In this document: piece after piece, positions 4,344 through 17,942 of the stretch
Layout of the letters: each line of letters starts with the position of its first letter
Numbering within the stretch: position 1 is the first letter of the stretch
DNA from: Geotalea daltonii FRC-32
GTDB lineage: Bacteria > Desulfobacterota > Desulfuromonadia > Geobacterales > Geobacteraceae
Length of the DNA stretch: 32,000 nucleotides
Direction of reading: 5' to 3'
NCBI RefSeq assembly: GCF_000022265.1
Contig: NC_011979.1
Location: forward strand, 1,740,001-1,772,000
The notes under the pieces: model-generated
Told to the model about the DNA's origin: nothing
What the model saw: only the letters and a program-made list of their open reading frames with translations
Databases searched by the model: none
Position numbers and translations under genes: made by a program

Positions 4344-5000
4344 TTATGCGACTTTTAATTGCAGTTGTCCGACCCCGGGAATCTCTGCTTCGATGCTGTC
4401 TCCTGACTTGATTGGTCCGACTCCGGCCGGGGTCCCGGTGAGAATGACGTCGCCGGCCTCAAGGGTGAAAATGCCGGACATATAGCTGATCATGGCCGCC
4501 ACGGAATGGATCATCAGGGAAGTATTGCCGTCCTGCCTGAGCTGGCCGTTGACGGAGAGCCTGATCTGCAGATTCTGGGGATCGGCCACAGTTGCAGCAG
4601 CCACGAAGCCCGAAAGGGGACAGGCCGTGTCGAAGCCCTTGGCAATATCCCACGGCAGGCCTTTCTTTTTCAGTTCTGCCTGCACATCCCGCAGGGTCAG
4701 GTCGATGGCCATCCCATATCCGGCAATGTGCTCCAGTGCCTTTGCTGCAGGAATGTCTTTGCCCGGTTTCCCGATAAGTATGGCCAACTCCGCCTCATGG
4801 TGGCAATCGCTGGAATGGATGGGGATAATGATCGGCTCACCCTGAAAAATGACGGAAGTGGCAGGCTTCATGAAGACGACAGGTGCCTGTGGCATCTCAT
4901 TGCTCAATTCTTTGATATGATCCACGTAATTGCGGGCGATGCACAGGATCTTGCCTATCTGGAATTCTTTGTCCGTGCCGCTTATGGTGATAGTCTTCAT
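4344..5000 (-). CDS. Fumarylacetoacetate hydrolase (FAH) family protein
   Basis: 218 aa. KILCIARNYVDHIKE...VFMKP...HHEAELA...GTPAGVG matches the FAH / 2-keto-4-pentenoate hydratase fold. Confidence 0.9.
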   Translation of the reverse strand: MKTITISGTDKEFQIGKILCIARNYVDHIKELSNEMPQAPVVFMKPATSVIFQGEPIIIPIHSSDCHHEAELAILIGKPGKDIPAAKALEHIAGYGMAIDLTLRDVQAELKKKGLPWDIAKGFDTACPLSGFVAAATVADPQNLQIRLSVNGQLRQDGNTSLMIHSVAAMISYMSGIFTLEAGDVILTGTPAGVGPIKSGDSIEAEIPGVGQLQLKVA

Positions 5001-5095
5001 TGTCTACCTCGCAAGAATAAAAGTTCCGACGGCTGGCCCAGAGCCCTTTTACCTCGCTGGGCAGTGATTGGTCGTCATGGAAAGCCCGCCTCCTA

Positions 5096-6055
5096 TCAGA
5101 GGTTGCTGACGTTCCGTCCGCCTTCTGCCAGCCTGCATCCCTGCCAAGTGCCGCGTCTCTTGAGTTCGTTCACCACCGAATACCACATCTGGTTGTTTTT
5201 AAGGCCCCAGGTGGGAGCAACGCGAATGGCCAGTGGGGCGGAGCCGTAGAGCCGCTGGATGGTAACGGACGGGGGGGTGAGCTCCAGGAAGTCACAGAGG
5301 TCTGCCACATACTGCTGATGTGTCAGTGGAACAAAACGGCCGTCATAATACCACTCCGCCAGCCGGGTATCTTTCACGGCATGCAACTGGTGGATCTTCA
5401 GGGAGTTGACCGGCAGCGACGAGATCAGCTGTGCTGTTCTGATAAAGTCGGCGGAGGACTCGCCGGGGAAGCCGTGGATGAGGTGGGTGCAGATGTCCAT
5501 GCCCCTGCCGGAAACCCTTTCTACGGCCTGTAAATAGTCGGCAAGGGTATGGCCGCGATTAATCTGCGTCAGTATACTGTCATCCATTGACTGCAGGCCC
5601 AGTTCCAGGCAGACATAGCTGGTTCGGGCCAGGTCGGTCAAAAGATCGATAGCCGGATCACTGAGGGCATCGGGCCTGGTACCGATGGAAATGCCTACCA
5701 CATCGGGATGGGCCAGGGCGCGGCTGTACAGGTCATGTAGTTTTTCCACAGGACCATAGGTGTTGGTGAATTTCTGAAAGTAGATGATGAATTTTTCGCT
5801 GCCCAGTCTCTTTCTATGGTAGGCCATTCCCTCTGCCATCTGGATTTCAACAGGGATTGCCGCCACGGTCCCCCCGGGTGAAAAGGAACTGTTGTCGCAG
5901 TATATGCAGCCGCCCGTGCCACGCACCCCATCCCGGTTGGGGCAGGTGAACCCGCCATCCACGTTGACCTTGCTGATACGACAACCGAAACGCCGTCGCA
6001 GGTATGATCCATAGGAGTTTATATGCAGATCGGGATGTATGGAGGTGCTGATCAT
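5096..6055 (-). CDS. TIGR01212 (YhcC-like) radical SAM protein
   Basis: The N-terminus reads LRRRFGCRISKVNVDGGFTCPNRDG..GGCIYC, as in YhcC. Its start overlaps the thiE stop by 4 nt. Confidence 0.9.
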   Translation of the reverse strand: MISTSIHPDLHINSYGSYLRRRFGCRISKVNVDGGFTCPNRDGVRGTGGCIYCDNSSFSPGGTVAAIPVEIQMAEGMAYHRKRLGSEKFIIYFQKFTNTYGPVEKLHDLYSRALAHPDVVGISIGTRPDALSDPAIDLLTDLARTSYVCLELGLQSMDDSILTQINRGHTLADYLQAVERVSGRGMDICTHLIHGFPGESSADFIRTAQLISSLPVNSLKIHQLHAVKDTRLAEWYYDGRFVPLTHQQYVADLCDFLELTPPSVTIQRLYGSAPLAIRVAPTWGLKNNQMWYSVVNELKRRGTWQGCRLAEGGRNVSNL

Positions 6056-6711
6056 GTTTCTAGGTCGGATTCCGGAGCAGGAAGAAGGGATAGTAGGGTT
6101 CTGGCAGCCAGGCGTGGTTCCTCTGCCGACAGGATGGCGGAAACAATACCGATACCGTGGGGGGCTGCGGCCATCACTTCCGCAACATTGTCAGTCTTGA
6201 TACCGCCAAGGGCGAAAATCGGTATCTGTACGATATTGGTGGCTTCCTGCAGTCTTTTTAGACCCACCGGGTCACCATAAAGAGCTTTTGAAGGGGTGTT
6301 GTAAATGGGGCCGAAGGTGATGAAATCAGCGCCTTTTTCCTGGGCGATGATGGCCTGAACCTGATTGTGGCAGGAGACGCCGATCAGTTTCTTTTCCCCG
6401 AGGACCATCCTGGCCCGGTAGATGGGCATACTGTTGTATCCCAGATGAACTCCGTCCGCATCCACTGCCAGGGCAATGTCGATACGGTCGTTGATGATGA
6501 GCCTTGCGTTGTGGCGAGTCGTCAGCTTGCGCATCTCATAGGCAAGCTCATACAGTTCCTTGCTGGACAGATCCTTTTCCCGCAGCTGGATGGCACGGAC
6601 GCCTCCCCGGAGTGCGTCCTCAACCACGAATTCCAGGTTCCGGCCACCGGTCTGCTTGCGGTCTGTGATCAGATAGAGATCGAAATCTATCCAGGGAGAA
6701 GAGGATCTCAC
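6052..6711 (-). CDS. thiE: Thiamine-phosphate synthase
   Basis: DLYLITDR...[12 protein letters not shown]...[10 protein letters not shown]...IPIFALGGI. The start overlaps the thiG stop by 4 nt. Confidence 0.9.
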
Positions 6712-7487
6712 TCAATTATTCCTTCAATGGGGCTGGAGGCGGTCGCATAGAGTTTTTTCGGGATCCTGCCGGCCCTGTAGGCGAGGCGTCCGGCGCGAAC
6801 GGCAAGGTTCATAGCTTCAGCCATGGCGATGGGGTCTTTGGCTCCGGCAATGCCGGTGTTCATCAGAACGCCATCACAGCCCAACTCCATGGCAATGGCG
6901 GCATCGGAAGCGGTGCCTACACCAGCATCGACAATTACCGGCACTTTGACTGTCTCCATGATGATGCGAATATTATACGGGTTCCTGATGCCGAGGCCGC
7001 TGCCTATCGGCGCACCCAGGGGCATGACCGCTGCACAGCCGATGTCTTCCAGCTTCTTGCAGAAGATGGGATCGTCGGTTGTGTAGGGGAGGACGGTGAA
7101 TCCCTCCTTGATCAGGACTTTTGCTGCCTTGAGCAACTCTTCGTTGTCAGGAAAGAGGGTCTTCTCATCCCCCAGCACCTCAAGCTTGACGAAATCCGAG
7201 AGTCCGGCTTCCCGTGCCAGCCTGCATGTGCGGATGGCGTCTTCGGCGGTATAGCAGCCGGCGGTATTGGGCAACAGGGTATATTTGCCGGTATCGATGT
7301 GGTCCAGGAGCGATTCCTTGCTCCTGTCGGAGATATTCACCCGGCGCACGGCGACGGTGATGATTTCGGCGCCCGATACCTCAATGGCCTTGATCATCTG
7401 CTGGAAATTTGCGTATTTGCCGGTACCTACCATCAGGCGGGAATTGAACTCCCGGCCGGCTATTATCAGTTTATCGGAACTTGACAT
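6708..7487 (-). CDS. thiG: Thiazole synthase
   Basis: [19 protein letters not shown]...LPNTAGC...[20 protein letters not shown] Shine-Dalgarno upstream. Confidence 0.95.
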
Positions 7488-7506
7488 TGGTTTGTCTCCT
7501 GGGTGA

Positions 7507-7655
7507 TTAGCAGGTTGTTTAAAAACTGTTGCGTGGCCGATCTGCTGCGTTATCGCTCGCTCAAAACCTCAACGTACAGTGGGTACGCTTCGGCTTTTCG
7601 CTCGCTTAAGCCTTGCATTTCGGCCTACTCTCGACGTTTTTCAACAACCTGTTAG
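7507..7655. mobile_element. MITE-like palindromic element E2 inserted between thiS and thiG
   Basis: TIRs CAGGTTGTTTAAAAAC (7511-7526) and GTTTTTCAACAACCTG (7636-7651) match at 15 of 16 positions. They are flanked by a direct TTAG repeat (7507-7510 and 7652-7655). The interior is a long imperfect hairpin centred on GTAC-CCACT-GTAC (minus strand). Confidence 0.75.
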
Positions 7656-7667
7656 GGAATGATTGCG

Positions 7668-7868
7668 TTAACGGCCTCCGCCGACGAAATGAACGATCTC
7701 CATCTGGTCGCCATCCTTCAGCATGGTCGTGCCATAGTCGGCTTTGGGCAGGATATCGAGGTTCAGTTCAACGGCGACCCGTTTCGGATCGATTTCTATC
7801 TTTTGCAGAAAGGAGAGGACTGACATCGCGTCGATGGCTGTTTTTTCTCCATTTACGGTTATTTCCAT
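7668..7868 (-). CDS. thiS: Sulfur-carrier protein ThiS (66 aa)
   Basis: MEITVNGE...DGDQMEIVHFVGGGR*. The gene sits at the head of the thiG-thiE operon. Confidence 0.85.
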   Translation of the reverse strand: MEITVNGEKTAIDAMSVLSFLQKIEIDPKRVAVELNLDILPKADYGTTMLKDGDQMEIVHFVGGGR

Positions 7869-7899
7869 GATGACTCCATCCGATTAAACCAGCTGAGAA

Positions 7900-7928
7900 G
7901 GAAACAATAAAAGCCGCTGATGCGGCTT
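7900..7928 (-). terminator. Terminator-like hairpin in the thiS leader
   Basis: Minus strand: AAGCCGC-ATCA-GCGGCTT followed by TTATTGTTT. It lies between the predicted promoter and ATG 7868. Confidence 0.5.
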
Positions 7929-7951
7929 GTGGTTGCGATGACGCCTGGGGT

Positions 7952-7980
7952 AAATTACAATGTTACCCAGTTGCTGTCAA
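7952..7980 (-). promoter_or_regulatory. Near-consensus sigma-70 promoter upstream of thiS
   Basis: Minus strand: TTGACA (7980-7975), 17 nt spacer, TAATTT (7957-7952). Confidence 0.6.
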
Positions 7981-8031
7981 CTCTTTTCTTGGGGTAGAGT
8001 ATTGTTTTTAAAGGGGTTTGCGGCGATGAGG

Positions 8032-8565
8032 CTACTGTTGCAGCCGCTGTTTTCTGCCGGACTCGTCCAGGGCTTCAAGCTCCTTCCTGATCTCTTCATT
8101 GCAGAAGGTCCAGATGTGGTAGCTTTCCAGCCCTAAAACAGTGACCCCTGCGGCAAAGACTGCCCAGACATTGTCAGGCAGTACCCCTCCCAGGTGATAA
8201 AAAAGATAAAAGCCGGAAAGATATCCCACATGAGCCATGCCGCTGTAACTTTGAGAGCCCCCCATCATCCGTGACAGAATGAGGATGATGGCGGAAAAGG
8301 CATAGAGCAGAAGTGCGGTGCTGATCATGTTGGCCGATGGTGGTGTACCGAGAACGTTTCGCATCCCGGTTGGAAGGGAGGGGAGAAAGTCGAAATCCCT
8401 GATCGCCCCGATGCTGACGGCAGTGAACAGCGCCAAGGCGTGAAGCCCATGGCTGGACCTGGCTTTCAGTCGCCGGATCTTTTCCCTGCTTTCCCGGAAG
8501 CCTGGCGGCTCAGGCAACGGCTCATCATTTGCCTGCGTGTTTGAATGGGGAGCTTGCTTGCTCAT
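8032..8565 (-). CDS. Four-TM membrane protein of unknown function, last gene of the redox operon
   Basis: 177 aa with a polar N-terminal stretch of about 45 aa, then four hydrophobic segments. Conserved-looking His residues occur in AHVGYLSGFYLFYHLGG and ESYHIW. GGGAGA Shine-Dalgarno upstream. Confidence 0.7.
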   Translation of the reverse strand: MSKQAPHSNTQANDEPLPEPPGFRESREKIRRLKARSSHGLHALALFTAVSIGAIRDFDFLPSLPTGMRNVLGTPPSANMISTALLLYAFSAIILILSRMMGGSQSYSGMAHVGYLSGFYLFYHLGGVLPDNVWAVFAAGVTVLGLESYHIWTFCNEEIRKELEALDESGRKQRLQQ

Positions 8566-8606
8566 GGCCGATGGTATCTCCCGGGCCTCTGCGGCAGTGA
8601 AAGCAG

Positions 8607-9473
8607 TTACATCATTTCTTCAGCTTCCATGGCCGGCTTGTGATCGGTTTTGCGACTGCCTTTCAGTTTTCTCAGTTCCTCTTCAGCCAGTTTCAGTTGG
8701 GAAGCAATCGACCTGACATCACCGGCCAGATCGGTCAGTTCGCCGGAAATGCCTGAAAGATCATGAGAAAGACTACCACTGTTCACATTTGATGTAAATG
8801 TCCTGATTTGCCGAAGAGGCATGAAGACCTGTCGTCTCAGGAGAGCCGCGACTCCCCCGACCGATAACAGGAGGACCATGAAGCTGAAGACGATCATGCG
8901 GCTCTGCAGGACTGTCAAGTTGCTGTTCAGGTGCTCAGCCGAAAGGCCGATATCGAGGATTCCTAAAATCTTCTGGTCTGCGCTGTGGAAGTGGCACGAA
9001 GCCGTGTAGCAGGCAGGGTCATTGTAAAGGGGTGATGTTATGGCGATTATATCCTTCCCCTGCGGGTTTTGATAGCGCCTTGCCCGCTCCATCTGCTTGA
9101 GGGTTGATTTCGCTACCGGCCCGGCATGGCAGCCGATGCAACCCGCAGCCTTTTTGTCCACATAGGTGAAGACCTCACCGTGGTTGCCGGAGAACATGAC
9201 CAGCCCCTTCTTGTTGAAGATGCGCACATGCTCCACTTCATCCTGACTGCTGACGTTGTCGATGATGTTTCTCAGGGTCTCCCGGTCCCCTTTCAACATG
9301 GCGTAATGGGTCGATCTGGTGATGGTGTCGGCAAGCTTTGTTTCATAGGAGACGGCGTCGCTGATCATATCTTCTTTAAGCGCAGAGAAGAGAAGGATGC
9401 AACAGACAACGACGAATCCCGTTATGGCCACTGCTACCGGCACGATGGCTCTGGCTGTCAGGCTCTTCAACAT
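8607..9473 (-). CDS. Kinase-less membrane sensor: TM, periplasmic heme-motif domain, TM, HAMP
   Basis: GGAGGTG Shine-Dalgarno. Motifs CIGCH and CYTASCHFH are present. The protein aligns by eye along its whole length with residues 1 to about 270 of the kinase at 16314-17942. It ends after the HAMP / short coiled coil. Confidence 0.8.
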   Translation of the reverse strand: MLKSLTARAIVPVAVAITGFVVVCCILLFSALKEDMISDAVSYETKLADTITRSTHYAMLKGDRETLRNIIDNVSSQDEVEHVRIFNKKGLVMFSGNHGEVFTYVDKKAAGCIGCHAGPVAKSTLKQMERARRYQNPQGKDIIAITSPLYNDPACYTASCHFHSADQKILGILDIGLSAEHLNSNLTVLQSRMIVFSFMVLLLSVGGVAALLRRQVFMPLRQIRTFTSNVNSGSLSHDLSGISGELTDLAGDVRSIASQLKLAEEELRKLKGSRKTDHKPAMEAEEMM

Positions 9474-9520
9474 GATTGCACCTCCCCGGTCCTGCGTTTG
9501 TCCCGTGATTTCAGGTGTTT

Positions 9521-9553
9521 AAGGGGCTTCTTTTGGGGGACAAGAGGCCCCTT
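9521..9553 (-). promoter_or_regulatory. Intercistronic GC-rich stem-loop (not followed by a U-tract)
   Basis: AAGGGGCTTCTT (9521-9532) and AAGAGGCCCCTT (9542-9553) are complementary at 11 of 12 positions. The stem lies in the 99-nt gap between the nonaheme gene and the sensor gene. Confidence 0.4.
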
Positions 9554-9572
9554 CGACATCATCTTATCCCTA

Positions 9573-10337
9573 TTAAACTTTATGGCAGCGATCGCAGTTT
9601 TCCTTAACCGTAAATGCGGTTTTGCTGTCATGACATGCACCGCAGGATTTCCCTTTTTCCATTTCAGCCATGGTAACTGCTTTTTTGTGGCCGCGGTGGC
9701 TGTAGAGGTGGGCATGGCAGTCCTTGCATCCATATGCATCCAGGTGGAATACGTGGCTGAATTCCACATTGCCCGCCCCGGCTATTTTATAGCTTCGATC
9801 TTTTACGGGGTGGCAGCGGGTGCACTTGCTCAGGGCAAAACTTTTTTTCCCGTCATGACAAGCCCCGCACGACTTTCCTTTTTCCATTTCGGCCATATTC
9901 ACTCTTTTGTTTGGCCCCGGTTTGAAGATCGCGTTGTGGCAGGAACTGCACTGCATTGTCTTCAAATGCACCGAATGACTGAAGGTGGTTGGCCCGGTTT
10001 CCTTCACGTTATAGGTTATCTGGCGCACCTTATGGCATGATGTGCATCCGGAAAGGGCAAAGGCCTTGGCTCCGTTGTGGCACATGCCGCATGATTTGCC
10101 CTTGTCCATGTCTGCCATGGTATAGCGGACATTCTCTTTAAGATTGCTGTTGTGGCACGATTTGCAACCCACGTTGGCAGTTCTTGCATTTTTCTTTTTC
10201 AGGTGCGATGAGTGGCTGAAGACAACCTTGCCTGCCTTTTCCGTGTTGAAGGTTTTGTCTTTGAGTTCCATGGAGTAGGCCAGGGTGAAGCTGCCAAAGA
10301 GCATCGCCAGAATGTATGTTGTCCATCGGACTCTCAT
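9573..10337 (-). CDS. Periplasmic nonaheme cytochrome c made of three c7-type triheme modules
   Basis: Signal peptide present. Nine CXXCH motifs: CKSCH, CGMCH, CTSCH, CSSCH, CGACH, CTRCH, CKDCH, CGACH, CDRCH. The unit V.FSH..H......C..CH...(M)AEMEKGKSCG.CH......A......C..CH occurs three times. Confidence 0.9.
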   Translation of the reverse strand: MRVRWTTYILAMLFGSFTLAYSMELKDKTFNTEKAGKVVFSHSSHLKKKNARTANVGCKSCHNSNLKENVRYTMADMDKGKSCGMCHNGAKAFALSGCTSCHKVRQITYNVKETGPTTFSHSVHLKTMQCSSCHNAIFKPGPNKRVNMAEMEKGKSCGACHDGKKSFALSKCTRCHPVKDRSYKIAGAGNVEFSHVFHLDAYGCKDCHAHLYSHRGHKKAVTMAEMEKGKSCGACHDSKTAFTVKENCDRCHKV

Positions 10338-10385
10338 GACTGTCTCCTGTTACCTGGATTTAAATATGTGCCTCAACTGTTCCAA

Positions 10386-11747
10386 TTACTGGAATGAAGC
10401 CTCTTCCTTCGTCTTATAGCTGGCACCCACAGCAAGTCTTTCCTCACTCGCGTAAGCTTTGGCGACCCTGACCTTTTCCGTTGCCGGTTCCAGCGCGTCA
10501 GCGGTTTTCCATGCGTAGAGGATGGGCAGCCGGTAGAGAATGAAACGGTATACGACGATATAAATGGCGAATATGGTTACCGAGATTATCGCTTCACGCC
10601 AATGGGGAATTTCCCGCTCGGCAAGTTTCCAGTTGAAGGCGATCATGGCGGTGTTGATCCTGTTCAGAACGACGCCGAAGACGGTCAGGACGGCACTGAA
10701 ACGGACGACACCGACGAGGCGGTTCTTGATGCCGTATGCAAACAGCACAAGCGGGGCGATGACGCCGATAAAGATCTCTAACATGAACCATTGGCCCCAT
10801 CCGGTTGCCAGGTATTCCCACTCATTATCGTGGGCAATGCCGATCAGCTTGATGGTCAAATAGGTTGCAAGCCCCATGCTGGCCCCTTTGGCCAGAGCGA
10901 TGGTCAGTTTGTCCAGGTTTTCCTTGAAACGGTCGTCACAACGCCAGGCCATGGTCTTGCTGACAATGGTGCTGATGGCGATAACCATGCAAAGTCCACC
11001 CGGCAGGGATGAAACGAAAAAGTGCAACCATTGAAACGATGCCGAATACCAGAGAGGGTGTACCTTGCCTGGCGCATAGGTGAAGAGTGCCCCAAGGGCG
11101 CCCTGGTGCAAGGTAGAGAGGATGATTCCGGCCACTGTCAGGCCGAGGGTTATTTTTCGCACTCCCCGCTTGCCGACCGGGAAGCCGATCCACTCGAAAA
11201 ATGATGCCGAGACCTCCGCGACCTGCACGGAAAGATAGGTAGCCACATGCCAGGCGACCAGGAACAGTACTGCAGCAGGCCCAAAGGATACGACCATCGG
11301 GTATGGCAGGCGCCAGGGTTGCCCCAGGTCCACCAGCAGATAGACGACGGCAAAAAAGTAACCCAAGAGGCCATTCAGGAGGCCCAGGCGCTCTATGGGC
11401 TCAAAATCGTGCCGGCCGAAGATCTCGACGGTGGTGCCCAGTTGAAAACCGGAGGAGGATAGGGGGACCATGGCGAAGAGACCAAATCCGAGAAATAACC
11501 CCCATGGATAATCATTGGAGCTGTGGGTGACCCAGCTGAGACCGAAAATGAAACGGCCGAGAATGATGGGAATGCCCACGGCGAATATGGCCGCCAAAAT
11601 CCAGTTGAATGGGTTACGCAGGGCCTGGGCCACATATTGCTGTGGGGTGAGGCCGAGAAGCAGTTTTTCCATCAGCGTCCATTTTTTCTCGTCCTGCCGG
11701 TAATGGGAATCGACTATATCTATTCCTTCCTTTTTATATCTTTTCAT
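10386..11747 (-). CDS. NrfD/PsrC-type polytopic membrane quinone-interacting subunit
   Basis: ATG 11747 is preceded by GGAGGA and overlaps the FeS gene stop by 14 nt. The product is about 453 aa with many TM segments. The ORF-track N-terminal extension to 12047 runs inside the upstream gene. Confidence 0.85.
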   Translation of the reverse strand: MKRYKKEGIDIVDSHYRQDEKKWTLMEKLLLGLTPQQYVAQALRNPFNWILAAIFAVGIPIILGRFIFGLSWVTHSSNDYPWGLFLGFGLFAMVPLSSSGFQLGTTVEIFGRHDFEPIERLGLLNGLLGYFFAVVYLLVDLGQPWRLPYPMVVSFGPAAVLFLVAWHVATYLSVQVAEVSASFFEWIGFPVGKRGVRKITLGLTVAGIILSTLHQGALGALFTYAPGKVHPLWYSASFQWLHFFVSSLPGGLCMVIAISTIVSKTMAWRCDDRFKENLDKLTIALAKGASMGLATYLTIKLIGIAHDNEWEYLATGWGQWFMLEIFIGVIAPLVLFAYGIKNRLVGVVRFSAVLTVFGVVLNRINTAMIAFNWKLAEREIPHWREAIISVTIFAIYIVVYRFILYRLPILYAWKTADALEPATEKVRVAKAYASEERLAVGASYKTKEEASFQ

Positions 11748-12666
11748 TGTCGGAATCCTCCTGCGATGATTTTGGATGATCGTGCCCGTGCTCTTCTTCA
11801 TGCTCCTTTTTGCGAGTGGACAGCAGGTGGAAGCCGGTGAAAAGTGCCGGCCAGATTGCCAGTACCATGGGTACCGTGCCGAGGAATTCCTTGACATTGG
11901 AAATAATCGGTTCATTGCCCAGCGTCGTATCAAATCCCACCTTGTCGAAGGGAACACCGGAGAGATAGAGCCAGCCGGTTCCTCCCAGCTCCTTTTCGCC
12001 ATAGATGTGATCAACATATTTATCCGGAGTCTCTCGAATGCGCTCATGGCCCATTTTGATCAGATCTTTCCTGTAGCCGAAGGTCAGGACCTCCTGCGGG
12101 CACACTTCGACACAGGCTGGTGGTTTTCCGTATTTGACCCGCGTGTCGTAGCAGAAAATGCATTTTTTGACCACAGGGTTGGTGGCGCTGGAATAGCTGT
12201 AACCAGGGACATTGAAGGGACAGGCAATCATGCAGTTACGGCAGCCCACGCAGATCTTCGGGTTGTAGATAACGGCCCCTTCCTTGGTTTTAGTATAGGC
12301 ATTGACGAAGCATGAGGTGAGGCAGGCCGGTTCATTGCAATGGTTGCACTGGATTTTGCGATACACCGGGCCGCCCTGGTTTTCATAGCGATTGACAACG
12401 GTGTATGCTTCCTCCGTCGGCCGCCTTTTTTCTTCAAATACCGACTGATCGTCAAAGGGGATCTTCGGTTCGGGCAGTTTCTGCTCCTTGTTGCAGGCAG
12501 CTTCACAACTGCGGCAGCCGATGCAGCGCGTCAGGTCAACCAGGACCCCCATTCCCTCGGAATAACCTTCAAAAGAACCACTCCCCCAAGCTTTCTTTGC
12601 AGGCAGGCCAAGGGAGGATGCTGCTCCGCACAGCATGCAACCTTTCAGGAAATCTCTCCTCTTCAT
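11734..12666 (-). CDS. Tat-exported 4x[4Fe-4S] ferredoxin subunit (NrfC/HybA/HmcB family) with a C-terminal TM anchor
   Basis: Twin-arginine signal MKRRDFLKG. Four Cys clusters: CIGCRSCEAAC, CNHCNEPAC, CVGCRNCMIACP, CIFC...CVEVCP. A hydrophobic helix TVPMVLAIWPALFTGFHLL lies near the C-terminus. Confidence 0.9.
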   Translation of the reverse strand: MKRRDFLKGCMLCGAASSLGLPAKKAWGSGSFEGYSEGMGVLVDLTRCIGCRSCEAACNKEQKLPEPKIPFDDQSVFEEKRRPTEEAYTVVNRYENQGGPVYRKIQCNHCNEPACLTSCFVNAYTKTKEGAVIYNPKICVGCRNCMIACPFNVPGYSYSSATNPVVKKCIFCYDTRVKYGKPPACVEVCPQEVLTFGYRKDLIKMGHERIRETPDKYVDHIYGEKELGGTGWLYLSGVPFDKVGFDTTLGNEPIISNVKEFLGTVPMVLAIWPALFTGFHLLSTRKKEHEEEHGHDHPKSSQEDSDNEKI

Positions 12667-12707
12667 AATTGTCTCCTTGAAATACGAAGATTATTTTAGG
12701 CAAGGCT

Positions 12708-13232
12708 TTAATGCCCCTTGGCAACTTTTCCAGTCTTCTTGGGTGTGAAGCTCCCGGAGTTATAGAGAGCTTCCCCGGTCCTGTTCATCCGGTGGCAGTC
12801 CCGGCAACCTGTCGGTCCGCCCATTTTTTCATGGCATCCCATGCAGTTCAGGTGGTAGGCCCCTTTCAGTCCGGGCTTGTCCTGGTGATACAGTTTCAGG
12901 TTTGCCCGTTTCTCCTTTAGAGCTTCCGCCGAGAAGGGCTGTGCGGAATGACATCCCCGACAGGCTACCACCTTGGTTCCGCTGCTGTTCTGGTGGCATC
13001 TGGCACAGTTGGCGTCTTCCACCAGATTGCCGGTGGTGTGGTGATGGCATCCAGCGCAGTCCTTAAGGAGCCGGATATGCTGGGCGTGATTGAATTCAAC
13101 ACTGTCATAGTTTTTCACAAGCGAGTCGAGGGATATCATGTCGGGCAAATCGGCTCCCTGGCATATGTAAGGGATCGCCCCCAGCGCAATCATGAAAATG
13201 AATGTTTTTATGTTCTTTAGTCCTGTGTACAT
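12708..13232 (-). CDS. Pentaheme cytochrome c (c3/NrfB-like)
   Basis: AAGGAGA lies 7 nt before ATG 13232. Signal peptide present. Five CXXCH motifs: CAGCH, CARCH, CRGCH, CMGCH, CRDCH. Confidence 0.9.
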   Translation of the reverse strand: MYTGLKNIKTFIFMIALGAIPYICQGADLPDMISLDSLVKNYDSVEFNHAQHIRLLKDCAGCHHHTTGNLVEDANCARCHQNSSGTKVVACRGCHSAQPFSAEALKEKRANLKLYHQDKPGLKGAYHLNCMGCHEKMGGPTGCRDCHRMNRTGEALYNSGSFTPKKTGKVAKGH

Positions 13233-13282
13233 GTGGGGTTCTCCTTTGGATTGAGATAGCAATTCTTTCCGTGGCCCAAGCT

Positions 13283-13450
13283 TTACCCGTGCCTATCCCC
13301 GTCTTTGTGGATATAGCGGTAGAAAATGGGGAACCCGACAAAGAATGCAATGCAGATCAGGTATTCGACCCCTTTTATGTACTGGTAGAAATCCACCAGG
13401 GTAAAAACTTCCTTTATTTCTCCCATTGATGACAAGGCTTGATCGAGCAT
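13283..13450 (-). CDS. 55-aa single-TM protein (below the ORF-track size cut-off)
   Basis: AAAGGAGGAAAATTCC precedes ATG 13450. Product: MLDQALSSMGEIKEVFTLVDFYQYIKGVEYLICIAFFVGFPIFYRYIHKDGDRHG*. It fits exactly in the gap between flanking operon genes. Confidence 0.55.
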   Translation of the reverse strand: MLDQALSSMGEIKEVFTLVDFYQYIKGVEYLICIAFFVGFPIFYRYIHKDGDRHG

Positions 13451-13484: not shown

Positions 13485-13730
13485 TCAATGTCTGATTTCA
13501 GCCTTCGCTTCTTTCTCTTTTCCTTTGCCGGCCACCAGTTCCTTGACTATTCCCCACAGGGTAAGGATGGCTGGAATCATCTGGATGACCACCACCAGGG
13601 CGCAGAAGCCGAGAAATGCCAGGACCAGAAGGCCGCTGCTGTAAACACGCGTGGTATTGGCTGCAAAAGCCTGGGGTACTGCCAGCATCCAGAGGGTAAT
13701 TGTGATGATCATTGTTTGTAGAGTTTTCAT
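13485..13730 (-). CDS. Small signal-peptide/TM protein B (81 aa), paralogue of 14191-14433
   Basis: AAGGAGA precedes ATG 13730. Product starts MKTLQTMIITITLWMLAVPQAFA-AN..LLVLAFLGFCALVVVIQMIPAIL.. and has a Lys-rich tail. The ORF-track start at 13802 is too early. Confidence 0.7.
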   Translation of the reverse strand: MKTLQTMIITITLWMLAVPQAFAANTTRVYSSGLLVLAFLGFCALVVVIQMIPAILTLWGIVKELVAGKGKEKEAKAEIRH

Positions 13731-13752: not shown

Positions 13753-14154
13753 TTAGCTCTGGGTTTTATGGGGCTTGTTTCCCTGCAGGTTCTCGAAGGC
13801 ACATTCCACTGCCTGGCGTATCTCCTCCCGGTCTTCGGGTTTTACCGGTTTCAGTGCGTGATAAAAAATGCCTTCTTTCCGCAGTTTGCGCATGAGTGGC
13901 AGAGAGATTTCATTTGAAACCAGAATGATTGTCAGGTTCTGATCGCATTTCTTCAGAATCGGCACCAGGTCAGTTGCCGTCAGTTCGTCGAATTCGCTGC
14001 TGAGCAGTACCACCTGGGCCGTCTTCTTCAGGATGCCGTAAAGCACGTTGGCTGCAGAATTGGTTACCATGACGTTGTATCCTGCTTCGATGAAGAGATC
14101 TGCCATGGATTTCCGGCTATCCAGATCTTCGTCTGCTATGAGAAGTCCTTGCAT
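13753..14154 (-). CDS. Stand-alone receiver-like domain lacking the phospho-acceptor Asp
   Basis: 133 aa with a CheY-like fold pattern. The acidic pocket is LLIADED. The beta3 end reads VVLLSSEF, with Ser where the phosphorylated Asp is expected. ILVSN and the ALKP Lys are retained. Confidence 0.75.
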   Translation of the reverse strand: MQGLLIADEDLDSRKSMADLFIEAGYNVMVTNSAANVLYGILKKTAQVVLLSSEFDELTATDLVPILKKCDQNLTIILVSNEISLPLMRKLRKEGIFYHALKPVKPEDREEIRQAVECAFENLQGNKPHKTQS

Positions 14155-14190: not shown

Positions 14191-14433
14191 TTAGGATGTC
14201 TTGTCTGTTTTCTTTGCCAGAACTCGCTCTTTAGGAGCGACGAAAATCCCTTTCAGCATGGAAAAGAACAGCATAATGCCGGGGACCGCCTGAAATACGA
14301 TGATCAACGCCCCGAAGCCAAGAAACAAGTACAGCAGCAGGCTTGGTTCTGTTTTTTCCGCTCCGTTTGCAGCAAATGCTGTTGAAATGCTGCCGATGAA
14401 CGCCAATAATGCGTTTTTAATCGTGCTTTTCAT
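14191..14433 (-). CDS. Small signal-peptide/TM protein A (80 aa), first gene of the operon
   Basis: AAGGAGGA precedes ATG 14433. Product starts MKSTIKNALLAFIGSISTAFA-AN..LLLYLFLGFGALIIVFQAVPGIML.. and has a Lys-rich tail. Confidence 0.75.
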   Translation of the reverse strand: MKSTIKNALLAFIGSISTAFAANGAEKTEPSLLLYLFLGFGALIIVFQAVPGIMLFFSMLKGIFVAPKERVLAKKTDKTS

Positions 14434-14793: not shown

Positions 14794-14876
14794 GATTAAA
14801 ATGGTTAAGGCAGATTAAGTTTTAGCCCGGAACGCAGTGGGAGCATGACTCAGATGATGAAGTGAAGGGACGTGGC

Positions 14877-16298
14877 ATGGCTGGAAGGCGCATAATGGTG
14901 GTTGACGATGAGGCTATCATCAGGGAAGGGATTAATCGCATTCTCAGTGGCAGCGAATTTTTCGTCGAAACGTATGCCAACGGTTATCTTGCCCTGGAAA
15001 AGTTGCAGGAATCTTCCTTCGATCTGCTCATAACCGACCTTAAAATGCCCGGAATGGGGGGGATGGAGGTGCTGAAAAGCATCAGGGTGCTGCAGCCGGA
15101 AATGCCGGTCATCATCATAACCGGCTATTCTTCTGTGGATACTGCCGTCGAGGCTATGAAAAACGGCGCTGTGGACTATGTGTCCAAGCCGTTTACTCCC
15201 GACGAGATCCTTGCCAAGGTGAATAGCGCCCTGGAAAAAAAAGCGGTCCTGGTGGATGATATTTACCTGCGCAAGGAACTCCGCGACAATCATGGCTTTG
15301 ATCGGTTTATCGGTGCCAGCGCGGAAATGCAGAAGGTCTACCGCCGCATTATGCAGGTAGCCCCCACTGACAGCAGTGTGCTCATAACAGGGGAGAGCGG
15401 AACGGGAAAAGAGCTGGTAGCCTCTGCTATCCATAAAAACAGCCAGAGAAGAGATCAGGTTTTTGTCGCGGTTGACTGTACTTCTTTGGCGGAAAACCTT
15501 CTGGAGTCCGAGTTGTTCGGCCATGTGAGGGGCTCTTTTACCGGTGCTGTCCAAACAAAGACAGGGCTTTTCAAGGTTGCCGATGGCGGCACGCTTTTCC
15601 TGGACGAGGTGGCAAACATCAGCCTCACTACCCAGGCAAAGCTGTTGCGCGTCCTCCAGGAGCGCGAGGTTACTCCCATCGGCGGCACGCAGCCGGTTCC
15701 CATCAATATTCGTCTCATCACCGCCACCAACAGGAATCTGAAAACGATGGTAGCAGACGGCAGCTTCAGGGAGGACCTGTTCTTCCGGCTTAATATTATC
15801 CCCGTCGATCTGCCCCCATTGCGGGAGCGGAAAGGGGATTTGCCACTTTTGATTGCCTATTTTCTGAAAAAATTCGCCGATGAAATGGGCAAGGAAGTCA
15901 GGGGGCTTGCTCCCGATGCCCTCGCTCTGCTGGAAGAATATCCCTTCTCCGGCAATGTGCGTGAGCTGGAAAATATAATCGAACGGGCCGTGGTGCTGGT
16001 TGAGGGTGGGTTGATCAAGAAGGAAGACCTTGAACTGACTCTGCCTGAGGATGAAGAAGGTGAGAATATCCATGCATGCAGTCTAATACCCCAGAGTGTC
16101 TATGAACTGAAGGAAAGGAAACGGCATCTGCGCGAGATTGCCGTTGAGCCAATTGAAAAGGCTTTTGCACTGAATGCTTTGAAAAGGAACAACTGGAATG
16201 TGACGAGGGCGGCTGAACAGACTGGCATGCTTCGTCCGAACTTTCAGGCGCTGCTGAAGAAGCTGGGAATTTCCATCAGAGGGCAGTGGGACAACTGA
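14877..16298 (+). CDS. NtrC-family sigma-54-dependent response regulator (REC, AAA+, Fis-type HTH)
   Basis: REC domain with VVDDE and LLITDLKMPGMGG. Walker A motif GESGTGKE. GSFTGA loop (a variant of GAFTGA). C-terminal HTH ..NWNVTRAAEQTGMLRPNF. The start is ATG 14877 (GAAGGGA upstream) or GTG 14862. Confidence 0.92.
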   Translation: MAGRRIMVVDDEAIIREGINRILSGSEFFVETYANGYLALEKLQESSFDLLITDLKMPGMGGMEVLKSIRVLQPEMPVIIITGYSSVDTAVEAMKNGAVDYVSKPFTPDEILAKVNSALEKKAVLVDDIYLRKELRDNHGFDRFIGASAEMQKVYRRIMQVAPTDSSVLITGESGTGKELVASAIHKNSQRRDQVFVAVDCTSLAENLLESELFGHVRGSFTGAVQTKTGLFKVADGGTLFLDEVANISLTTQAKLLRVLQEREVTPIGGTQPVPINIRLITATNRNLKTMVADGSFREDLFFRLNIIPVDLPPLRERKGDLPLLIAYFLKKFADEMGKEVRGLAPDALALLEEYPFSGNVRELENIIERAVVLVEGGLIKKEDLELTLPEDEEGENIHACSLIPQSVYELKERKRHLREIAVEPIEKAFALNALKRNNWNVTRAAEQTGMLRPNFQALLKKLGISIRGQWDN

Positions 16299-16313: not shown

Positions 16314-17942
16314 TCAGGTCGGAGCAGGAAGCATGCTGTCTTTTCTACTATACATCTCCCCGCCGCAAGCAATTTCACCTCTATCTTCCCCGTTTATGGG
16401 CAGTTCGATGGTAAAGGTAGTTCCATTTCCCACCACACTCTGCACGCAAATATCGCCGCGATGATTGCGGATGATGCCGTAGGAAACCGACAACCCAAGG
16501 CCCGTTCCCTTGTTTTCTTTCGTGCTGAAAAAAGGATCGAAAATCTTCGTCAGATTTTCTTCCGGGATGCCGCAACCGGTATCGGATATGCCTATAAATT
16601 CACTCAGGCCATCTTCGGTAATACCGGTCCTTATATTGAGGCTCCCTCCATTAGCCATTGACTGTCCCGCATTGAGCAGCATGTTGATGAAAACCTGCTC
16701 GAACTGATTGGGGTCCAGCATGATGTCCGGCATATCGAAGGTATAGTCCTTGATTAGGGCTATATTCTGAAAAAGTATCTGGTGTTCCACCAGTGAGAGG
16801 GCCAGGTCCAATATGTCATTGATGGATGACAGCTTTTTCTGGGGCAGTGATTCCCGGGAGAAATCCAGAAGTCCCTTGACGATTTTGCTGCAGCGTTCCG
16901 TTTCCTGAACGATGGTCTTCAGGTCATCTTTGAGCTCCGGATCCAGTTTCGGATCGTCATTGACAAGGGAAGAAAAAACAAGAATACCGGTAAGGGGATT
17001 GTTTATTTCATGGGCGATCCCGGCCACCAACTCGCCAATGGAAGCGAGTTTTTCCGACCGGATCAACTGGGCCTGGATTGCTGTGATCTCTTTGGTACGT
17101 TCTTCAACCTTTGTCTCAAGATTCTTGGCCCAGTCTTCCAGCTCATCCCTGGCTTGCTTCAGTTTTAGGGTCATCCTGTTGAAGCTGTCAGCCAGATCAC
17201 CCAGCTCATCGCCGGAGGCAAGGGATACGGTCCCGTCCATTTCCCCCCTTGCCAGCTTTTCAGTGTGTTTCACCAGTTGCTGTACCGGCTGATTGACCAG
17301 CTGTTGGATGAAAATGGTCAGAAACAGGGAAATGAGCCCCATGAGAAGGAGCGTTATGGCGATGGTGGTACCGCGGTAAGTGGCAAGCTGCTCATTCATG
17401 TGGTCTAGTGGTATGGTCACGTCCAGCACACCGAGCACCTTTATATCGGCTGGATGAAAATGGCAGGCAGCAGTATGGCACTTTTCGTCATTATAGATGG
17501 CCTTGGCCAGGCCGAGAAGCTGCTTGCCGTCGTGTCTGGTAAACTGCCTGCTCCTGTTCATGGAAGATGCATGAATGGCGGGATTGCCGGTTTCATGGCA
17601 CATGTTGCATGCCTCGTCCTTTTTGTCCAGCAGGGTGCCGATTTCTTGAGACTGGGTAGAGCAAATGATGGTTCCCGTCTTATCCATCAGCCTGATGTTG
17701 CCGATACCCTTTTCCTTGCCGATTTCTTCAATGATCTCCTGGGTGCGACCCCGGTCATCGTAGAGCATCTGGTGCTGGGTGGCCCTGATTACCGTGTCTC
17801 CAAGCTTGTCTGCATAGGTTACCGCTTCTTCCAAAAGCAGTTTTTTCAGGCTCTCAAGGTTTATATAGGCAAAGAGCGCCATGAAAATCAGCAGGATAAG
17901 GTTTATCCAGATGACAAGTTTTGGCAGCAGGCGCAGACTCAA
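16314..17942 (-). CDS. Sensor histidine kinase with a heme-motif periplasmic domain, HAMP, HisKA and HATPase
   Basis: TTG start with GGAG 7 nt upstream. TM, then a periplasmic domain with CNMCH and CHTAACHFH, then TM, then HAMP. H-box is AHEINNPL. The ATPase region carries GTGLGLS. Confidence 0.9.
   Translation of the reverse strand: MSLRLLPKLVIWINLILLIFMALFAYINLESLKKLLLEEAVTYADKLGDTVIRATQHQMLYDDRGRTQEIIEEIGKEKGIGNIRLMDKTGTIICSTQSQEIGTLLDKKDEACNMCHETGNPAIHASSMNRSRQFTRHDGKQLLGLAKAIYNDEKCHTAACHFHPADIKVLGVLDVTIPLDHMNEQLATYRGTTIAITLLLMGLISLFLTIFIQQLVNQPVQQLVKHTEKLARGEMDGTVSLASGDELGDLADSFNRMTLKLKQARDELEDWAKNLETKVEERTKEITAIQAQLIRSEKLASIGELVAGIAHEINNPLTGILVFSSLVNDDPKLDPELKDDLKTIVQETERCSKIVKGLLDFSRESLPQKKLSSINDILDLALSLVEHQILFQNIALIKDYTFDMPDIMLDPNQFEQVFINMLLNAGQSMANGGSLNIRTGITEDGLSEFIGISDTGCGIPEENLTKIFDPFFSTKENKGTGLGLSVSYGIIRNHRGDICVQSVVGNGTTFTIELPINGEDRGEIACGGEMYSRKDSMLPAPT

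Follow-up and report, generated by a model that had tools for sequence, protein, structure and literature searches.

Geobacter-type bacteria pick among several inner-membrane quinol oxidoreductases by the redox potential of the acceptor. A gene cluster in the window analysed here (32,000 nucleotides of Geotalea daltonii FRC-32) contains one haem-c sensor domain twice, once as part of a kinase and once with no kinase attached. A sequence-only reading of the window had described the second copy as a kinase-less paralogue of the neighbouring kinase and had suggested a dihaem redox sensor, which might heterodimerise with or titrate the kinase, or dock onto the respiratory complex.

Identity of the kinase-less protein

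The coordinates previously assigned to the two sensor genes are correct, and each gene lies on the minus strand:

8607..9473, minus strand: cbcD orthologue, kinase-less, 288 aa, with TM1, a haem-motif sCache/PAS domain, TM2, a divergent HAMP domain and a coiled-coil stub
16314..17942, minus strand: sensor histidine kinase, GSU0599 orthologue, 542 aa, with Pfam matches to HAMP, HisKA and HATPase_c and a two-haem-motif sCache domain

The shorter gene has a GGAGG ribosome-binding site 5' of its ATG. Its product is the Geotalea orthologue of Geobacter CbcD (GSU0591, "Cbc5" cluster). It aligns over its full length with the G. sulfurreducens protein at the GSU0591 position (54% identity, 265 aa, E = 2e-111) and is closer to that protein than to the kinase of its own genome (31%, BLASTP). 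The kinase in turn shares 60% identity with its G. sulfurreducens counterpart, which occupies the GSU0599 position. The name CbcD was already known, as was its listing together with GSU0599: according to published reviews, two signal transducers of G. sulfurreducens carry two c-haem motifs, namely GSU0591 and GSU0599. For the window alone, the outcome is an orthologue of a named, uncharacterised protein. What is new is a CbcD clade made up of short proteins only, the alignment of its CX4CH motif and Met59 to a proven haem site, the conservation of its membrane helices over its HAMP domain, and its linkage to CbcE.

Organization of the gene cluster

The remaining features of the cluster are, from the activator to the end of the operon:

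14862..16298, plus strand: sigma54-dependent activator with receiver, BccR/GSU0598 type (Pfam Sigma54_activat 1.4e-69, Response_reg 8e-33)
14191..14433, minus strand: first operon gene, 80-aa signal-peptide/TM protein at the GSU0597 position (ORF call)
13753..14154, minus strand: single-domain receiver, GSU0596 type (Pfam Response_reg 2.9e-9)
about 13485-13730: gene of ~81 aa resembling the 14191..14433 product (ORF; likeness by eye only)
13283-13450: 55-aa ORF in a DVU_0533-like slot (ORF call)
12708..13232, minus strand: class III (c3-type) multihaem cytochrome, CbcS-like subunit (Pfam Cytochrom_CIII 7e-10; five CXXCH by eye)
11734..12666, minus strand: HmcB/HybA-type iron-sulfur subunit (NCBIfam HmcB 5.3e-119; Pfam Fer4_11)
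10386..11801, minus strand: HmcC/NrfD-type integral membrane quinone-interacting subunit (NCBIfam HmcC 1.8e-106, below cut-off; HybB 1.7e-47); start codon uncertain, 11801 or 11747
9573..10337, minus strand: CbcC-like periplasmic cytochrome (Pfam Cytochrome_C7 1.2e-47, three stretches; NCBIfam nanowire_3heme 4.5e-78)
8032..8565, minus strand: cbcE orthologue, 177-aa four-helix membrane protein adjoining cbcD; G. sulfurreducens homologue AAR33921.1
7911..7928, minus strand: terminator-like hairpin after cbcE, with a 7-bp stem, 5 GC pairs, then TTATTGTTTC

The gene cbcD is the second-last of the cluster. No terminator-like site was found on the minus strand in the intergenic gaps from 14433 to 8032, the only two such sites lying inside coding sequence, and the hairpin at 7911..7928 is likely the end of the transcription unit. 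This supports the earlier placement of cbcD inside a respiratory operon. The CbcC-like cytochrome comprises three c7-type trihaem domains with nine CXXCH motifs, counted by eye. The order of small genes at the operon start is repeated in four other loci (L005, L007, L013 and L014). The activator gene is divergent from the operon, in a position that matches bccR in G. sulfurreducens. A scan for the sigma54 promoter consensus gave 44 matches against 38.5 expected, which is no better than chance. In receivers of the GSU0596 type the position of the phospho-acceptor Asp is occupied by Ser or Gly in 7/7 orthologues, which are 68-91% identical overall; the window protein has Ser and is, judged by this residue, a pseudo-receiver. 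Among named clusters, Cbc6 (GSU2930-2935) was ruled out as the match since it is a Rieske/cytochrome b cluster, and Cbc4 (CbcSTU), to which only the first three structural genes show a resemblance, was set aside as a full account of the cluster.

Paralogy with the sensor kinase

A BLASTP comparison of CbcD with the 542-aa kinase aligned residues 40-276 (238 aa) with one gap, 31% identity and 53% positives (E = 5e-41). All three sequence blocks that had been matched by eye fall inside this alignment, and CbcD is a true paralogue of the adjacent GSU0599-type kinase. By region, the identity is 34-38% in the sensor domain, 34% in the N-terminal helix and 30% in the HAMP domain. For TM1 and TM2 it is 4% and 12% within one genome, although each helix is conserved among its own orthologues. 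A homologue search with the kinase sensor domain alone returned 10 proteins, mostly fragments.

The absence of a kinase core, as first read, is borne out: window CbcD has no Pfam match to HisKA or HATPase_c, and the chain ends at residue 288. A tblastn search with the kinase core detected no remnant 3' of cbcD, and a recent truncation was rejected on this ground. The CbcD clade comprises 19 representative clusters (50% level), all of at most 317 aa and all matching CbcD with much higher scores than the kinase. Since all 19 clusters are short and no kinase remnant is left, the kinase-less state is ancient. In Geobacteraceae and relatives, full-length orthologues with 55-99% identity to the window protein number more than 120 and measure 267-332 aa. 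CbcD represents an old branch within the Geobacter-type family of periplasmic haem-c PAS/sCache sensors, one that has stably remained without a kinase.

Overall structure

The AlphaFold2 model of CbcD (monomer without cofactors, pLDDT 79.8, confidence lowest around the first CXXCH loop) consists of TM1, a long helix, a PAS/Cache β-sheet, TM2, a helix-loop-helix motif, a coiled-coil stub and a disordered tail. It agrees with the proposed order of TM, periplasmic domain, TM and HAMP before the chain ends, the HAMP domain being divergent. In a Foldseek search the best match was the N-terminal TM-Cache-TM-HAMP region of WalK (E = 5.6e-11, TMq 0.69), followed by KinD, CitA and the haem-c sensors 3b42 (E = 6e-4) and 3b47, so that a PAS/Cache fold between two TM helices is present. 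A PDB sequence search with the single protein gave chance hits only. As comparison class we used the haem-c PAS/sCache sensor domains of PF21563 (GSU0582, GSU0935 and GSU0303; PDB entries 3b47 and 3b42). PF21563 matches 84/90 family members at E<=0.01; the window protein itself scores 22.4 bits, below the Pfam gathering cut-off of 27.

The Pfam HAMP model (PF00672) has no match in window CbcD at E<0.01; it picks up only 10/90 family members, and 10 divergent representatives of CbcD all go unmatched. The family profile reaches the HAMP domain of Af1503 (E = 0.003), and the clade retains Pro219 and Glu245, which are HAMP hallmarks; for these reasons we assign a divergent HAMP domain to CbcD. In the model, helices 180-231 and 247-276 are split by a loop after TM2. 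Because the hairpin has constant length and both hallmarks in all clade members, a cytoplasmic output is also conceivable.

Across five matched genomes, CbcD identity is 83% in TM1, 73% in TM2, 64% in the PAS core and 48% in the HAMP domain, against 62%, 53%, 64% and 58% for the kinase. Within these five genomes the membrane helices are thus the best-conserved part of CbcD and the HAMP domain the worst. The helices could just as well be conserved because they pack tightly in a homodimer or touch a different membrane subunit.

Haem motifs

CbcD carries CIGCH at residues 112-116 and CYTASCH-F-H at residues 155-163, and the kinase CNMCH and CHTAACH-F-H. Both translations contain the one CXXCH and one C-x4-CH motif noted before, the latter in the form CX4CH-x-H. 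C155, C160, H161 and M59 are found in 11/11 representatives of the CbcD clade and H163 in 10/11, so the Cys-His motif is conserved in orthologues. Kinase-type representatives keep M59, C155, C160 and H161 in 123-126/127 cases, and all five positions including H163 in 119-126/127. Nearly all kinase-type representatives (126/127) have the first CXXCH, against only 7/11 in the CbcD clade. The idea that the four Cys residues bind a metal cluster and not two haems is not favoured: four of the 11 clade representatives lost the first motif and kept the second, as did some kinase-type fragments. Because the first site can be lost with the second kept, the two behave independently.

In the alignment, the CX4CH motif of CbcD coincides with the haem-binding CXXCH of the GSU0582-type methyl-accepting chemotaxis protein (MCP), and Met59 with a Met on its N-terminal helix, the position of the distal ligand Met60. 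CbcD thus has both the N-terminal-helix Met and a c-haem motif at the family position, the motif being CX4CH and not CXXCH. For GSU0935 and GSU0582, ligation by Met60 and His144 has been published, together with a redox-linked switch in spin and coordination. These correspondences lend support to the idea of a dihaem periplasmic redox sensor.

Linkage to CbcE

A CbcE homologue accompanies cbcD in 10/10 loci whose downstream genes were read. Six were aligned, five directly after cbcD and one (L008) with an activator gene in between; four (L010, L012, L013 and L014) were assigned by size and position, with a gene of 169-182 aa at the cbcE place. The linkage holds with a CbcBA-type module (L010, L012), with a c3/HmcB/HmcC-type module (window, L001, L005, L007, L008, L013, L014) and in L009, where the oxidoreductase module is absent and cbcD and cbcE adjoin a kinase whose sensor domain differs. 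A GSU0599-type kinase gene is located within the cbcD cluster in 8/10 loci examined; the locus of Geobacter sp. DSM 9736 (L007) ends inside a second activator gene.

The G. sulfurreducens counterpart of CbcE (GSU0590, AAR33921.1) is annotated as "menaquinol oxidoreductase" or "Yip1 family". A Foldseek search of the PDB with the AlphaFold2 model of CbcE (pLDDT 81) yielded nothing significant. A bis-His b-type cytochrome was rejected, with H112 in 57%, H150 in 80% and only H124 at 95% of 79 homologues.

Proposed mechanism

Based on these results we propose that the kinase-less CbcD orthologue is a redox-responsive haem sensor that signals via membrane contacts, probably with CbcE, a reading to which we give an even chance. 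A c-type haem would be bound to C155-x4-C160-H161, where His161 would be its proximal ligand, and Met59 on the long N-terminal helix would be a redox-labile distal ligand, as in GSU0935. In most members a second haem may be bound to C112-x2-C115-H116. Reduction or oxidation of the haem by the periplasmic cytochrome pool would change its coordination and move the N-terminal helix and the TM helices. With no kinase to drive, the signal would be used inside the membrane, where the unusually conserved TM1 and TM2 could pass it to a membrane partner, most likely the four-helix CbcE. The divergent HAMP domain and coiled-coil stub would mainly be a dimerisation or coupling element. CbcD and CbcE might ultimately control how the neighbouring quinol:cytochrome c oxidoreductase works or is assembled, or they might act in signalling. 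The GSU0599-type kinase, we infer, works with the BccR-type activator to control the cluster; the CbcBA paper names the regulator BccR and mentions neither a kinase nor a sensor.

Instead of signalling to CbcE, CbcD could be a feedback decoy that tunes BccR-dependent expression of its own operon by mixed dimers with, or titration of, the GSU0599-type kinase. Such a role would suit the true paralogy of sensor and HAMP domains, the kinase gene in the same cluster at most loci and the coiled-coil stub retained after the HAMP domain. The N-terminal helix forms swapped dimers in GSU0582/GSU0935 and is similar enough between the paralogues (34%) that a periplasmic mixed dimer is conceivable. The membrane helices speak against it, being conserved within each orthologue group yet unrelated between the two, as do the persistence of cbcD-cbcE beside a different kinase in L009 and the weak conservation of the HAMP domain. 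Moreover, a terminator is reported after cbcB in G. sulfurreducens, and in G. metallireducens cbcCDE was induced 2-2.8-fold where cbcBA was induced 29-42-fold, a weak coupling for a feedback device. We regard the decoy as quite improbable: the heterodimerise-or-titrate model is not supported and in part somewhat disfavoured, and docking onto a membrane partner fits better. A further variant would make CbcD and the Asp-less GSU0596-type receiver a "shadow" two-component pair in the target operon. Together with CbcE, the pair could bind the kinase and/or the BccR receiver interface and thereby define, or make sharper, the redox potential (about -0.21 V in G. sulfurreducens) at which the cell turns on the low-potential quinol oxidoreductase; this is a long shot.

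In the Geobacter literature CbcD is annotated as a plain electron carrier: a cytochrome c subunit of the quinol:cytochrome c oxidoreductase, anchored in the membrane and with one or two haems, through which electrons would move between the membrane module, CbcC and periplasmic cytochromes. Cbc5 is commonly drawn as a five-subunit complex with three cytochromes, CbcD among them, and the two conserved haem motifs and the adjoining multihaem cytochrome genes agree with this. The fold, however, is that of a sensor and not of a cytochrome, the same domain is the input of a genuine kinase in over 100 representative clusters, and the homologous haem of GSU0582/GSU0935 switches spin and serves as a sensor. 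The two TM helices and HAMP hairpin kept clade-wide go beyond the needs of a simple anchor, cbcD persists where the oxidoreductase module is swapped or absent, and the first haem motif is lost in part of the clade. We consider a mere carrier unlikely. A decaying remnant, a truncated kinase gene heading for loss, would account for the missing HisKA and HATPase_c and the divergent HAMP domain. It has practically no chance, being already refuted by the conservation data: the many full-length orthologues, the uniformly short clusters and the invariant motif residues, together with the empty downstream region and the detection of the GSU0591 protein in G. sulfurreducens.

If CbcD is a redox sensor and not an electron wire, the picture of Cbc5 as a five-subunit, three-cytochrome complex needs revision, and the CbcD-CbcE pair would become a candidate for the point where low-potential respiration is controlled, post-translationally or by signalling.

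Comparison with known systems

The closest known relatives are CbcD/GSU0591 of Cbc5 (cbcEDCBA) and Gmet_2931, which are orthologues of the same length class with the same two haem motifs. The window and G. sulfurreducens share a c7-repeat cytochrome upstream of cbcD, CbcE and then thiS/thiG downstream, and a GSU0599-type kinase with a BccR-type activator upstream. They differ in the oxidoreductase module: cbcA and cbcB are not present beside window cbcD, and where G. sulfurreducens has CbcA (7-haem c) and CbcB (dihaem b), the window encodes a c3-type cytochrome together with an FeS protein of HmcB type and a membrane protein of HmcC/NrfD type. Pfam detects the HAMP domain in G. sulfurreducens CbcD, whereas it is missed in the window protein.

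With the GSU0599-type kinase, CbcD has the two-motif sensor domain in common (34-38% identity) and a related HAMP domain (30%), but it lacks the DHp and catalytic domains and its TM helices are unrelated (4% and 12%). The GSU0582/GSU0935 domains share its fold class, the TM-sensor-TM-HAMP topology, a haem motif after the same β-strand and the conserved N-terminal-helix Met at the Met60 position. In contrast to them, CbcD has CX4CH instead of CXXCH, an extra CXXCH in an insertion of ~17 residues, and an output that ends with HAMP and has no MCP signalling domain.

Membrane-bound auxiliary regulators of kinases are known as "three-component systems", for example YycH/YycI acting on WalK. To our knowledge, regulators of this type are not paralogues of the sensor domain of their kinase. 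A WalK-YycH model was among the Foldseek matches to CbcD. Like YycH/YycI, CbcD is a catalytically inert membrane protein near a two-component system and could act by helix contacts; in its case, the comparative evidence favours CbcE over the kinase as the partner.

Relation to the neighbouring kinase and identity of the protein

The genes considered here are the following (window positions).
8032–8565, minus strand: CbcE, membrane protein of 177 residues
8607–9473, minus strand: window protein, 288 residues
14862–16298, plus strand: BccR, sigma54 activator
16314–17942, minus strand: window kinase, 542 residues

A BLASTP alignment of the 288-residue protein with the first half of the kinase, encoded on the same strand, was significant (E = 5e-41, 31% identity over 238 residues, one gap). 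The three blocks matched by eye in the sequence-only reading all lie inside this alignment; the likeness is correct and well above chance. Each protein indeed carries one CXXCH and one C-x4-CH motif: CIGCH (residues 112–116, first haem motif) and CYTASCH-F-H (residues 155–163, second haem motif) in the window protein, CNMCH and CHTAACH-F-H in the kinase. Pfam assigns HAMP, HisKA and HATPase_c to the kinase. For the window protein it gives only sub-threshold sensor-domain matches, PF21563 Mcp40H-20_sensor (E = 1.6e-4) and sCache_3_2.

The closest relatives are annotated as 'HAMP domain-containing proteins' from Geotalea and other Geobacteraceae, the best 120 matches being 267–332 residues long and 55–99% identical. 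A homologue look-up for the 177-residue downstream protein led to Geobacter sulfurreducens AAR33921.1 (locus L010). The order there is kinase (536 residues), convergent with a sigma54 activator (470), an 80-residue protein, a receiver (130), a 77-residue protein, a multihaem cytochrome (349), a Ni_hydr_CYTB protein (218), a c7-repeat cytochrome (329), an sCache+HAMP protein (283), the membrane protein CbcE (176) and thiS. This region matches the published cbcEDCBA (GSU0590-0594) with bccR (GSU0598). The window protein is 54% identical to the 283-residue protein over its full length and the window kinase 60% identical to the 536-residue kinase. Together with the gene order, these identities make the window protein almost certainly the orthologue of CbcD (GSU0591), beside an orthologue of GSU0599.

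It thus adds a member to a family already known and named. A 2021 review lists GSU0591, annotated as 'cytochrome c family protein', and GSU0599 as the two signal transducers of G. sulfurreducens with two c-type haem motifs (CX2-4CH), in agreement with a 2013 paper citing Londer et al. 2006. Further papers describe CbcD as one of the complex's subunits, a periplasmic cytochrome. The literature search found no paper testing CbcD function, and the CbcBA paper mentions neither kinase nor sensor.

Family and motif conservation

Searching 1.84 billion representative proteins with a profile gave 476 members at E ≤ 1e-30, mostly of 490–790 residues. When the listed representatives were each scored against both CbcD and the kinase, they split cleanly: 19, all of at most 317 residues, score far better to CbcD, and the remaining ones are kinase-type. 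A tblastn search of the window with the kinase core gave just two matches, the kinase gene it came from and an unrelated kinase (29821–30441), so no kinase pseudogene remnant follows cbcD. The gene is not a recent truncation; the kinase-less state of the CbcD clade is old and maintained. The unrelated histidine kinase gene (29764–30984, minus strand, 406-residue ORF) was matched at E = 1e-16.

Residue conservation among representatives of at least 240 residues
Residue; CbcD clade (n = 11); kinase-type (n = 127)
M59; 11/11; 126/127
First CXXCH (C112, C115); 7/11; 126/127
C155; 11/11; 126/127
C160; 11/11; 124/127
H161; 11/11; 123/127
H163; 10/11; 119/127

The expected conservation of the Cys-His motifs in orthologues therefore holds for the second site but not throughout for the first. 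Some of the relatives P0128, P0129, P0138, P0141, P0142 and P0171 lack the first CXXCH yet retain the second site, which in P0142 and P0171 is CX3CH instead of CX4CH. The conserved site therefore tolerates different spacings, with CX2, CX3 and CX4 all occurring in the wider family.

Gene context

Ten loci were read around cbcD (the window, L001, L005, L007, L008, L009, L010, L012, L013 and L014; L002 from Geotalea toluenoxydans was left out). Alignment confirmed a CbcE homologue in six of them, directly after cbcD in five and with an activator gene between in L008; L010, L012, L013 and L014 have a gene for 169–179 residues in the CbcE position. At least 18 contigs are apparently common to the CbcD and CbcE matches listed, which hints indirectly at many more linked pairs. 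The paralogous kinase is encoded within the cluster in 8/10 loci, including L012, where an intact GSU0599-type ORF (4963–6720, plus strand) is uncalled in the source record of this metagenomic contig; the stretch from Geobacter sp. DSM 9736 (L007) ends in a second activator gene. In the metagenomic contig L009 the kinase has a different sensor domain and stands beside a porin-cytochrome pair. There (5230–11346) cbcD and cbcE adjoin a multihaem cytochrome, an MtrB/PioB-type porin and an AMP-binding enzyme, not a quinol oxidoreductase; the differing periplasmic domain of that kinase also has a CXXCH (CIRCH).

The quinone-oxidoreductase genes encode CbcA and CbcB in G. sulfurreducens (L010, 6111–7820) and a fused CbcAB in L012. 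In the window (10386–13262, minus strand) c3-type cytochrome, HmcB-type FeS and HmcC/NrfD-type membrane proteins replace them, as also found in L001, L005, L007, L008, L013 and L014. The oxidoreductase module thus seems to have been exchanged while the regulatory and accessory genes around it (BccR/kinase, CbcC, CbcD and CbcE) form a conserved frame. A 55-residue ORF (13283–13450) occupies the slot where other loci show a weak DVU_0533-type match.

At the head of the operon lies a GSU0596-type receiver (13753–14154, minus strand). Ser or Gly replaces the phospho-acceptor Asp in 7/7 aligned orthologues, which are 68–91% identical overall; judged by these residues it is a conserved pseudo-receiver. 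GSU0596 has been described as a response regulator. The window receiver is flanked by two proteins of about 80 residues (14191–14433 and ~13485–13730, minus strand), alike by eye only; both have a signal peptide and a single TM helix (LFLGFGALIIVFQ-like).

On the minus strand of the window, from 14433 down to cbcE, no terminator-like site was found between genes; downstream of cbcE lies a good T-run hairpin (7928–7911). Between cbcD and the gene of the c7-repeat cytochrome, the 100-nt spacer (9474–9572, minus strand) holds a GC-rich inverted repeat (AAGGGGC...GCCCCTT) without T-run, which may serve in mRNA processing or stability and not in termination. A terminator has been reported after cbcB in G. 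sulfurreducens. Published induction in G. metallireducens is 2.6-fold for cbcC, 2.0-fold for cbcD and 2.8-fold for cbcE, against 29-fold for cbcA and 42-fold for cbcB.

Overall structure and constrained regions

The AlphaFold2 model (90-sequence alignment, pLDDT 79.8) comprises TM1 running into a long helix (residues 5–61), a five-stranded PAS/Cache core, TM2 continuing as a helix to residue 231, a loop, a helix (residues 247–276) and a disordered tail. The suggested TM-periplasmic-TM-HAMP architecture is thus borne out for the TM helices, core and hairpin, but the HAMP part has no Pfam match. The Pfam HAMP model matches 10 of the 90 family members in the alignment and, out of ten divergent CbcD-clade representatives, not one; several of the matching ones must be kinase-type, as four kinase-type entries have a precomputed HAMP match. 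Despite this poor matching, the HAMP-like hairpin, Pro219 and Glu245 are kept in CbcD.

Mean pairwise orthologue identity in five genomes having both proteins, and identity of the paralogues within one genome
Region; CbcD orthologues; kinase orthologues; CbcD vs kinase, same genome
TM1; 83%; 62%; 4%
N-terminal helix; 73%; 63%; 34%
PAS core; 64%; 64%; 38%
TM2; 73%; 53%; 12%
HAMP; 48%; 58%; 30%

According to these values, the membrane helices are the most constrained part of CbcD and have nothing in common with those of the kinase. The CbcE model shows a four-helix protein with an amphipathic N-terminal helix and a long C-terminal one; R99, H124, E147 and C155 are each at least 95% conserved. 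No structural relative of CbcE was found.

Proposed function

CbcD may be a redox-responsive haem-c sensor domain with an output other than phosphorylation, which would signal or dock within the membrane with CbcE as partner. We consider the chances of this combined reading to be about even; CbcE as the partner, taken by itself, is a slightly more tentative assignment. The intramembrane part derives from the strongest comparative signals, the high conservation of the TM helices and the constant presence of CbcE nearby.

Three features speak against a mere electron carrier, though not decisively: a labile Met/His site inherited from the sensor family, a pair of TM helices with a HAMP-like hairpin kept throughout a deep clade, and the use of the same domain by more than 100 kinase clusters. 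Equally short of decisive are the arguments against a mixed CbcD-kinase dimer as general function: unrelated TM helices, a weakly conserved HAMP region, the gene context in L009 and the weak co-induction of cbcD with cbcBA. The sequence-only reading, which had offered heterodimerisation or titration of the kinase beside docking, is partly supported, with docking favoured.

Comparison with known haem-c sensors

Foldseek places the CbcD model closest to the N-terminal TM-Cache-TM-HAMP region of WalK (E = 5.6e-11, TMq 0.69); sensor domains of WalK, KinD, CitA and DctB follow, as do two haem-c sensors, GSU0935 (3b42, E = 6e-4) and GSU0582 (3b47). A 696-residue MCP with a PF21563 domain is encoded eight genes from cbcE (L010, 17670–19760, minus strand) and, judged by position, should be the structurally characterised GSU0582. 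C155-x4-C160-H161 of CbcD aligns to its CQSCH with a two-residue gap, and Met59 to a Met in its N-terminal helix. The first CXXCH of CbcD sits in an insertion of about 17 residues absent from this MCP. The CX4CH site probably binds haem. In GSU0935 the haem is ligated by Cys140, Cys143 and His144 with Met60 as redox-labile distal ligand, and in both GSU0935 and GSU0582 reduction turns the high-spin oxidised form into a low-spin one.
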